From Haplodiscus bocki (lineage: Eukaryota), in NCBI GenBank assembly GCA_965655095.1, contig OZ296648.1:57412001-57476000 (forward strand): DNA of 64,000 nt, given 5' to 3'. Positions 83 to 2,096 of this stretch are shown here, piece after piece. The notes below the pieces were generated by a model. That model ran no database searches and was not told the origin of the DNA. It saw only the letters and a list, made by a program, of their open reading frames with translations. Within the stretch, counting starts at the first letter, position 1. Each line of letters begins with the position of its first letter. The position numbers were made by a program, and so were the translations under genes.

Positions 83-1270
83 TCAGGGTTGGGTAGGTCG
101 GTGATTTTTTTTTAAATATAATGTATTATTCAAAAGAAAATTTTCAGTTTTGCTGAACATCTTGCTGTGCGGGAAGAAGTTTGAGTTCGTCAGGGTAGGA
201 CATGGTTCTCGGGTAGGCCTTCGAAAGGATATCTTTTTGGAGGGTGCCAAGGTGATAGTCCACTTATTCTGGGGGTCAAGCTGATCGCGGACTGAAAGAT
301 GAAACGTTTTAGGGAACGGCCATGCCAATAAACCATCGTAGTCGCCGGGGAAAAAAGGCGAACATGATTGAGGCGTGATTTCCTGCGGCAGAGTTCTGAC
401 CATATGGATAGAATTGAACAAAGAAGTTATATCCATGAGGGTGTGTGCGGTATACAGGACTGTTATAATGAGTACTGGGGTTCGTGGCAGCATTGTCAAG
501 TCGGGCAGCAGATTTGGGGTGCCAAAAACTAATCTCAATGCATTTACTTTCCACAGGATAGTGTCGGAGCCTCCAGACTCCAGGGCTGGGAATTTGTCAT
601 GGAGGAAAGTGAATTGGGATCGGTAGATAGATATAATTGTTTCACGACAGTTCTCTGCCTTTGTAAGTTCTTCTTCCAATTGTCTGACTCGGGTATCTAG
701 AACCGAAGAGGGTCCAAATGTTGTTTGGGTTGATGGGGGAGATCGTGGTGGTTCAGTTCGGCGAGATCGGGACGTAGTACTTCTTTTTAAAGTAACTGTG
801 ACCCTAGGCCTCGTTATTTGAATATTGCCTGGGGCACTAGAGTCTAGGAAAGCAGCAGAACAAGGAGGGTCGACTGTAAAAGGGACAGGAAGTGAAGAAG
901 GTGAAGGTTCATTAACCTGTCGACGCAATTGGGTTAGTTGGTCTTCAAGTCGGCGAATAGTTGTGTATAGCTTAAGGCGTTCACTTTTCTCGGTTTTGAG
1001 ATCCACGAAGAAATGAGCCACTTGTTGTTGAACTGCATGAAGATGTGGGAACTGCTTGAAGTTAGCTAATGGAAAGGTTTGAATTAATGGCTTTTTTTGT
1101 GCAAGTGCCTGTTCTGAGGTTAGTCGAAGTTGGTCAACTGGGGTGGTTAATAGATGAAGTTGCTCTGAAACTGAAGGGCTATCGGAATCCGGAAAAATTT
1201 TAGGACATTTGGTCGGAATAGTAAGATCAATTATATCTTGTGAAATACATGCATCTATTTCTGTCAGCAA
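83..1270 (-). pseudogene. TRAF-like protein (coiled coils + C-terminal TRAF-type MATH domain, no RING seen), 2 frameshifts
   Basis: Joining frames gives LDTRVRQLEEEL...TILWKVN...SPVYRTHPHGYNFFVQFYPYG..AAGNHASIMFAFFPGDYDGLLAWPFPKTFHLSVRDQ...SFRRP...NFLLNNTLYLK, collinear with the TRAF-C motifs (LIWKI, SPPFYT..GY, G.G.GTHLS, G..D.LL.WPF, LLDQ, SFQRP, DD.IFIK). Confidence 0.85.
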
Positions 1271-1341
1271 CTCAGGGCGATATATTGTGAATAATCATGA
1301 GTAGTTTGTCTCCTTGAAGATGGGTGCGTGTGGATTCAGTG

Positions 1342-2023
1342 TTATTCCACGGGCTGTACTTCGATAGCTGTCAGGGGTACCACAAGTCTCTGTGATGATA
1401 AAGCAGTGTTTTGAATGGTATACTCCTGTCTTTTATAATCCCAAAACACAATTTCCCAAAAAGAAAATGCGTTAGTTAGCTGGTAGAGTAAACAGGGTTT
1501 GTATCGAAGCCTTCTGACAAATTTGTGATGCCGATAACGACTTTGTCTTCGCTTCTGTTTGAAAATTTGCTGATTTCGCTGATATCGATTTGGTCGTGAA
1601 AAAGTTGCTCTGGCGTCTTTAGTCGATGTTCCCAGAGCTGTTGAATTAGAGCCGAGTCGTCCTGACGAAAAGGGATTAGATTGTGATTCCTCCGATGGGG
1701 TTTCATCAGAATGAGCTTTGGAAACACACAATGAGGGCAATAAAATATTGACTCGAGACTCTTGCCGTGAGGTTGCAGAGTGATCTGTAAATTGGATCGG
1801 GATCTTTTCTAAGGGCTGGAAGAATTTTTCGAGTATTGGTTTGGTGGCTGATTCGCCAAAACAATTGGAAAGATAGGAGAGAAAAAAGAAGAAGGATGGT
1901 AATATCTGGGTCCGTTGGAAAATTTAAATCAAATGCAGATAAGGGTTGATCCCAGTCAATTCCGTTCAACAGCGCGTCCAGTTCATCGTGTTGCAGCAAA
2001 GGGAGTGGTTGGTCGACTGAAAT
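1342..2023 (-). pseudogene. Fragmented ORF(s) of unknown function between env and the TRAF-like ORF; possibly the N-terminus of the same gene
   Basis: Overlapping ORFs 1706-1999 and 1342-1740 (basic Arg/Lys stretch KQKRRQSRYRHHKFVRRLR), preceded by a pyrimidine tract and CAG acceptor at 2024-2026. Confidence 0.4.
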
Positions 2024-2096
2024 CTGAAAAAGAATTTATAAAAAAAGAAAATAAGTAATAGAAAAGTTGTCCAGGATAACGCTCATATTATCTTAA

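Follow-up and report, generated by a model that had tools for sequence, protein, structure and literature searches.

The window, a stretch of 64,000 nt from Haplodiscus bocki, carries at positions 1-14637, on the reverse strand, a decayed Ty3/gypsy copy; elements of this family measure 18-22 kb and possess a class III env. The matches to integrase, macro domain, gag and env, together with an LTR-like match at 13278-14637, indicate that this region is a single decayed copy of an LTR element (Table 1). Over 4.5 kb, it shares 85% identity with a natural copy whose frames are open. The genes follow the order gag, pol, env, ORF-A, TRAF and 3' LTR, and the family presents LTRs, a target duplication, gag, a pol with integrase last and env, as expected of env-carrying Ty3/gypsy elements (errantiviruses in the broad sense). 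The 3' LTR begins outside the window (in L031), two bases past its position 1, which leaves a gap of about 50 nt after the end of TRAF. In the window copy, TRAF has lost its start codon, presents an in-frame stop at 1295-1297 and changes frame near 518, 358 and 114, and ORF-A changes frame near 1891 and 1843. The TRAF copy of the window is a pseudogene.

Table 1. Features of the element copy in the window (positions are those of the window).
Feature	Positions	Strand	Remarks
TRAF-like accessory gene, RING-less	52..1345	(-)	433 aa in open copies; broken in window copy
TRAF-C / MATH domain	93..571	(-)	frame-shifted in window copy
TRAF-N coiled coil	592..712	(-)	model helix 214-253; aligned to TRAF1/3/5
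First helical/coiled-coil segment	910..1171	(-)	homologous to host RING-less TRAFs
PAM2-like motif, LNPxAxxFxP core	1307..1345	(-)	residues 1-13, disordered N-terminus
ORF-A stop / TRAF start overlap	1342..1345	(-)	intact in 54/59 mapped copies
ORF-A, second exon of the predicted spliced gene	1342..2023	(-)	226 aa in open copies
Pyrimidine tract and AG acceptor	2024..2060	(-)	AG at 2025-2024; exon starts at 2023
env, class III fusogen (Monjiviricetes fusion family)	2097..4272	(-)	Pfam PF24664, E 1e-19; broken in window copy
Conserved non-coding block with TATA-like box	4300..4385	(-)	highly conserved between lineages
Three-codon first coding exon (Met-Val-Glu) and GT donor	4451..4461	(-)	donor lies about 190 nt upstream of env
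Integrase core fragment of pol	7724..8185	(-)	Pfam rve, E 1e-9
Macro domain in pol	8947..9387	(-)	Pfam Macro, E 8e-7
gag fragment	11139..11582	(-)	Pfam Retrotrans_gag, E 1.4e-4, below cut-off
5' LTR, part	13278..14637	(-)	87.9% identity over 1364 nt to 3' LTR

The first-pass annotation of the window had placed a TRAF-like gene 3' of env, and the other copies bear this out. Using the C-terminal half of TRAF as a query, we obtained at least 155 matches (150 of 4357 first-look candidates were scored), a figure that does not represent a copy number. We then extracted 10 kb around 60 matches, namely the 40 best beyond the whole copies and the last 20 of the matches listed. Upstream of TRAF and on the same strand, env was found in 56 of these 60 copies, ORF-A in 57 and integrase in 53, and an LTR began right after TRAF in 55. 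Six other whole copies of lineage A measure approximately 14-22 kb, with LTR matches of 92% to 99.8%. A host-type TRAF query revealed two additional lineages, B and C, which share the gene order of lineage A and whose TRAF and env are 37% and 57% identical to those of lineage A, respectively. Across whole copies, LTR pairs are 97-99.97% identical (the top value being found in lineages B/C), and 4-bp target duplications were observed in the two copies checked. One copy (C1; L037-L039), with LTRs 97% identical, is missing gag and pol and presents open frames for env, ORF-A and TRAF. Elsewhere, near-identical elements form a tandem array with a period of 18.4 kb (L033-L036, L052).

Several other sequences were observed in and around the window copy. 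The macro domain sits between the protease and reverse transcriptase regions of pol, and frames resembling reverse transcriptase are found on the opposite strand at approximately 8135-8920, which we read as an internal inversion with deletion in the window copy. The block preceding env comprises about 85 bases that are near-identical between lineages with saturated synonymous sites, and it is possibly an internal env promoter. We also considered this block as a structured RNA; folding was inconsistent (z of +0.3, -2.2, -0.6 and -0.6 on the sense strand) and the candidate was rejected as unproven. Between pol and env, an ORF running antisense (5984-6547, forward strand) encodes about 185 aa, acidic at the start, and has no Pfam match; homologues are present in lineages A and B, and the lineage C homologue is found at both LTR positions. 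More short sense ORFs are located between pol and the donor exon (4591-5287, reverse strand), one of which is common to lineage B (45-48% identity). Between the 5' LTR and gag, at 11599-12335 (reverse strand) and in the region upstream, and in the C2 and C10 copies, three tandem, mutually similar ORFs of about 115 aa each and a small hydrophobic ORF are found. Outside the element, nine diverged 44-nt repeats are spaced by about 178 nt at 33328-35103.

The TRAF-type MATH domain proposed for this gene is supported by both sequence and fold. Pfam PF21355 matched the window frame 83-1294 with an E of 3.4e-9, the rest of the domain being in a second frame (309-596), and it matched an open natural copy with an E of 5e-19. 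PDB matches were to TRAF5/4/1 (E 1e-14 to 1e-12) and Foldseek matched the structural model to TRAF1 (E 6e-13). The model (mean pLDDT 65; 70-90 in the helices and MATH) resembles TRAF1/5/4 and is composed of a disordered segment at residues 1-56 (pLDDT under 50), helices at 59-145, a disordered linker, a helix at 214-253 and the MATH sandwich. The protein therefore presents the defining features of the TRAF family, a C-terminal TRAF-C/MATH beta-sandwich with a TRAF-N coiled coil ahead of it. Coiled coils without a RING had been described in the window; we recovered two helical or coiled-coil segments, and in open copies we found none of the N-terminal RING and zinc fingers of canonical E3-ligase TRAFs (TRAF2-6). 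As stated in the same annotation, the gene has no intron and lies on the same strand as env. In TRAF1/2/3/5, the receptor hot spots consist of an Arg393/Tyr395 pair and a serine triad, according to excerpts of PMC6125299, and we mapped these residues through the TRAF5 alignment. The Arg393 equivalent is Gln in all 27 lineage A copies and Arg in 6/6 B/C copies, the Tyr of the pair is replaced by His in lineages B/C and the serine triad is absent; the hot spots of a TRAF1/2/3/5-type receptor binder are not those of the element TRAF. A mixed trimer of element TRAF and host-type TRAF was modeled with a score of 0.63, relative to 0.55 for the control.

The splice acceptor that the first-pass annotation had assigned to TRAF was recovered at 2024, but it opens ORF-A: two genes in different reading frames had been merged, and TRAF starts at 1345. 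Similarly, the spacing of about 70 nt after env holds for the pyrimidine tract and its AG (about 73 nt past the env stop) but not for TRAF itself, which starts about 750 nt past that stop. Where the frames are open, an ORF-A of 204-227 codons without its own ATG comes after the acceptor, and a TRAF frame of 405-436 codons comes next. The acceptor AG is kept in 48 of 57 mapped copies and the donor GT in 50 of 52, and lineages B and C present the same first exon and phase. As defined by these donor and acceptor sites, env is located inside the intron of the predicted ORF-A/TRAF RNA. On sequence grounds, the acceptor at 2024 serves ORF-A and not TRAF, which is the second cistron.

A spliced RNA joined at 2023 had been predicted, and three natural copies from which env is excised exactly to the AG are consistent with this prediction. 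In the first of these copies (L083, identical to L139), the missing segment runs exactly from the GT donor to the acceptor AG, and Met-Val-Glu joins ORF-A in frame. A search for the junction pattern yielded three matches against none for the reversed control; two were true env-less copies and one (L140) was rejected as a match by chance. A third env-less copy was obtained by DNA search, bringing the set to L139, L141 and L164. Because these copies are only 76-82% identical to each other, the loss of env happened repeatedly, and the simplest reading is that they arose by reverse transcription of the spliced RNA. When four contig runs, of undefined kind, were compared with one copy, the donor-acceptor joint was not among the 15 joints listed (219 more are unlisted). 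ORF-A itself is composed of an acidic amphipathic N-terminus, a Pro/Ser linker, a basic helix and a small three-stranded C-terminal domain. It returned no match in PDB, Pfam or Atlas, its model (pLDDT 52) had no fold match, and the same comparisons revealed no relation in sequence or fold to retroviral accessory proteins. A Rev-like or transactivator role, suggested by its composition, is only a guess.

Two features of TRAF were absent from the first-pass annotation: its coupling to ORF-A and its PAM2-like N-terminus. The ORF-A stop and the TRAF start overlap in lineage A, and lineages B and C present other overlapping or adjacent stop-start forms, such that stop and start overlap or are adjacent in three lineages whose TRAFs are about 37% identical. 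ORF-A contains 1.9 ATG per kb versus 10.9 in TRAF and 22.1 in env, a depletion that was significant in 5/5 copies relative to base shuffles but in only 2/5 relative to codon shuffles. The stop-start overlap and the ATG depletion fit a bicistronic RNA with reinitiation or leaky scanning, and we infer that ORF-A and TRAF are likely carried by one bicistronic spliced RNA on which TRAF is read second. No match was obtained in an Rfam scan of window positions 1-15000, and no reinitiation element was identified there. A second pyrimidine tract and AG are found directly before env (4262-4290, reverse strand), and the start of env is overlapped by a stop codon in open copies, which hints that the same coupling trick may apply to env.

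The PAM2-like core falls within the first 12 residues of TRAF in all three lineages, outside the globular domains, and it matches the PAM2 examples given in excerpts of PMC12898128. Pfam PAM2 (PF07145) scored 12 bits against a cut-off of 20 (E 0.18), with the first model positions missing because the motif is located at the very N-terminus. We found no match to the core in 279,334 background codons and it appeared in 3 of 20,000 shuffles. It was absent from 10/10 host-type or 325-aa relatives scanned; among element-like relatives, one (P0138) was without the core and another (P0260) presented a variant. This distribution suggests that the motif was added by the element to the captured TRAF. 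In the genome, we detected an MLLE domain followed by HECT-like sequence, which we take to be a UBR5-type ligase; no whole host MLLE was found in one frame, and the genome search did not turn up a host poly(A)-binding protein. It is likely that the PAM2-like motif lets TRAF hook host RNA-binding or ubiquitin-ligase proteins.

We estimated selection from natural open frames only, bearing in mind that pairs are not independent. Across 27 lineage A copies, TRAF presented a dN/dS of 0.17 at dS over 0.3, and pN/pS was 0.23 for shared variants versus 0.59 for singletons. The corresponding dN/dS and shared-variant pN/pS values were 0.27 and 0.32 for ORF-A (16 copies) and 0.08 and 0.06 for env (14 copies). 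Between lineages B and C, TRAF has a dN of 0.23 and a dS of about 1.5. Both coiled coils and MATH yielded values of 0.17-0.18, and the linkers 0.34-0.36. The most constrained part of the protein in lineage A is the PAM2-like segment, with nine shared synonymous and no shared non-synonymous changes over residues 1-13. These values indicate that TRAF is under purifying selection, with a dN/dS of about 0.2. Thus, none of the three conditions that would have spoken against the first-pass annotation (a single copy unlinked to env, a position outside the 3' LTR, a ratio near 1) was observed.

The capture of a host gene, as first proposed from the window, is supported by gene structure and phylogeny. 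In two low-copy host genes located outside elements (L113 and L114), the long exon seen codes for coiled coils and MATH but not for a RING, and the first coiled-coil motif is common to them and the element TRAF. In both, a GT-AG intron interrupts the last MATH strand; the element TRAF does not have this intron. The nearest named relatives, for TRAF as well as for an unrelated housekeeping gene, are from Convolutriloba macropyga, which makes an acoel host likely. The full-length relative from C. macropyga (XP_075250303.1) is without RING and, in our reading, keeps a zinc-finger remnant only. The element TRAF is 25-26% identical to this donor family. We built an unrooted tree of 47 rows from TRAF-N and MATH, leaving out vertebrate TRAFs. 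The 14 element-type rows formed one group (support 100/99), although the genomic context is unseen for the seven that come from other assemblies, and this group joined the RING-less family with a support of 98/95 versus 17 canonical or multi-MATH rows. These results indicate that the donor belonged to a host TRAF family in which the RING was missing beforehand, and that the RING was not lost by the element. The best explanation appears to be that a host RING-less TRAF gave rise to the element TRAF through a copy of its spliced mRNA. A canonical TRAF query against the genome returned matches dominated by element copies. Another assembly contains a 325-aa RING-less TRAF without PAM2 (P0290, P0288; 104 cluster members), which falls within the host-type genes and outside the element clade. 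A second capture is possible for this family; the search for its genomic context yielded one weak, unrelated-looking locus only.

TRAF is almost certainly a functional accessory gene of the element. Our main reading, to which we assign a probability of roughly 0.45, is that it is a selected gene, read as a second cistron, whose product acts as a ligase-less adaptor with two hands, PAM2 on one side and coiled coil/MATH on the other. Its expression, mode of translation, binding and benefit to the element are predictions drawn from the sequences compared here. Translation of TRAF, as the second cistron of the spliced RNA, would rely either on stop-start reinitiation or on leaky scanning. The PAM2-like motif would bind an MLLE domain carried by poly(A)-binding protein or by a UBR5-type ligase, and the host RING-less TRAF would be imitated by the coiled coils and MATH, which would draw away its partners. 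The element could gain from a stress, cell-death or RNA-surveillance response that is damped in particle-making cells.

Alternatively, TRAF could be neutral cargo carried passively between the LTRs. The window copy is itself decayed, and only 27 of 60 lineage A copies examined present an open TRAF frame. However, dN/dS is about 0.2 on shared branches, and frame, length and coupling are kept between lineages whose synonymous sites are saturated; the selection analysis has largely refuted this hypothesis, which we regard as scarcely tenable. The first-pass annotation favored a dominant-negative decoy, which would compete with RING-bearing TRAFs at the tails of TNF receptors or Toll-like receptors and block NF-kB. 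TRAF-N and TRAF-C are indeed kept without RING, and the genome contains a single zf-TRAF match, whose upstream sequence looks like the N-terminus of a canonical TRAF, as well as one TNFR cysteine-rich repeat above the Pfam cut-off. These two matches imply that TNFR-TRAF signalling may exist, and a TNFR-type target is possible. In acoels, the likely host group, excerpts of PMC12849515 report that TLRs, MyD88, IRAK and NF-kB are absent and that NFAT-type Rel domains are present, and TRAF and TNF do not appear in its main text. Our own genome search found no NF-kB/Rel domain, but because acoels do have NFAT-type Rel domains, we give no weight to this exon-by-exon search, the sensitivity of which is too low. 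The reported absence of TLR/NF-kB and a donor family that was RING-less beforehand, its lack of RING being inherited, weaken the decoy hypothesis. Moreover, the hot-spot residues for PxQxT-type tails are altered and the constrained PAM2-like motif is left unexplained, so that we consider a decoy quite unlikely.

It is also conceivable, though unlikely, that TRAF serves the RNA of the element. PAM2 would dock the protein on poly(A)-bound RNA and a trimer of coiled coils and MATH would form a scaffold for particle assembly, RNA stability or stress-granule escape, with mimicry of signalling being incidental. This hypothesis would account for a PAM2-like segment that is both the most constrained and element-specific, and for a receptor groove that has diverged from the host donor, but the first coiled coil and the core of MATH, both of host origin, are as constrained (0.18), which suggests that host-type contacts were kept. 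Finally, the element TRAF might be an active signalling protein that turns on, instead of blocking, a pathway of the host, be it survival, proliferation or LTR transcription. The host donor is RING-less and conserved, implying that the RING is unnecessary for its normal job, and ISKNV ORF111L activates signalling and caspase 8 according to excerpts of PMC3352826. ORF111L, however, has a RING, and the element protein is far from its donor (25-26% identity), making an activator improbable. A selected two-handed adaptor is the reading that we favor. Mobile elements keep captured host genes when a pathway of the host can be blunted or exploited in this way. The usual innate signalling is reportedly missing from acoels, and the presence of a selected TRAF in a prolific enveloped retroelement directs attention to one concrete pathway and provides a bait with which to find it.

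Complex retroviruses (nef, HTLV pX, foamy tas/bel2) possess additional genes that are placed between env and the 3' LTR or carried by spliced RNAs. The nef gene lies between env and the 3' LTR, overlaps the LTR, is the first cistron of a spliced RNA and encodes an N-terminal Gly for myristoylation. TRAF had been described as positioned like nef, and it does lie between env and the 3' LTR. However, it ends about 50 nt before the LTR without overlapping it, follows ORF-A as the second cistron of its RNA and starts with Met-Thr or Met-Leu, unlike the retroviral accessory genes. It is possible, although doubtful, that an acoel retroelement independently evolved the plan of complex retroviruses, with a spliced regulatory gene and a coupled TRAF in which PAM2 replaces the RING and through which TRAF-bound host defence proteins are handed over to poly(A)-binding protein or UBR5. 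If true, the target of TRAF would mark a defence pathway of an animal group without Toll/NF-kB. Among retroelements, Cer1 CERV resembles our element and complex retroviruses in having env-to-LTR or spliced extra genes, with a short first exon supplying the start codon (excerpts of PMC10309623). Rotifer LTR elements likewise carry extra ORFs on spliced RNAs, with no TRAF in excerpts of PMC5408684. The AUGA / UAAUG-type overlap after a long ORF resembles the stop-start coupled translation of caliciviruses, influenza B and SART1 as presented in excerpts of PMC10275272; in contrast, the predicted RNA is here a spliced subgenomic RNA of an LTR element, and a TURBS-type element is not established.

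The closest relatives of the captured protein itself are the acoel RING-less TRAFs (C. macropyga XP_075250303.1 and relatives), a sister group sharing the first coiled-coil motif, TRAF-N and a MATH with the same helical insert. Unlike the element TRAF, these host proteins have the intron and no PAM2, and they keep the Arg/Tyr pair and the strand-7 Gly. ISKNV ORF111L is also a host TRAF captured by a mobile genome, with coiled coil and MATH, but it belongs to a DNA virus, keeps its RING, is TRAF2-like and pro-apoptotic and has no PAM2 in excerpts of PMC3352826. Errantiviruses with an HSV/gB-type env share the gag-pol-env Ty3/gypsy organization, a class III env and an early-branching animal host; the main text of PMC13524379 mentions no TRAF, acoels, macro domains or accessory genes. 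We found no open-access report of the position 3' of env, the spliced stop-start pair, the RING-less donor or a PAM2-TRAF, and the errantivirus supplement may list relatives. TRAF-C cargo in gypsy elements, on the other hand, is already in print. The planarian Burro, as described in excerpts of PMC6431247, is a giant env-bearing gypsy LTR element with thousands of copies, MATH_TRAF_C and an env related to mononegavirus fusion proteins, and it resembles our element in its many copies and its TRAF-C. In Burro, TRAF-C forms part either of the ORF1 polyprotein or of an accessory ORF upstream, and env is in frame between gag and pol. In contrast, the TRAF described here stands alone 3' of env, is coupled to a predicted spliced ORF, derives from an acoel-type RING-less donor and carries a PAM2-like motif.
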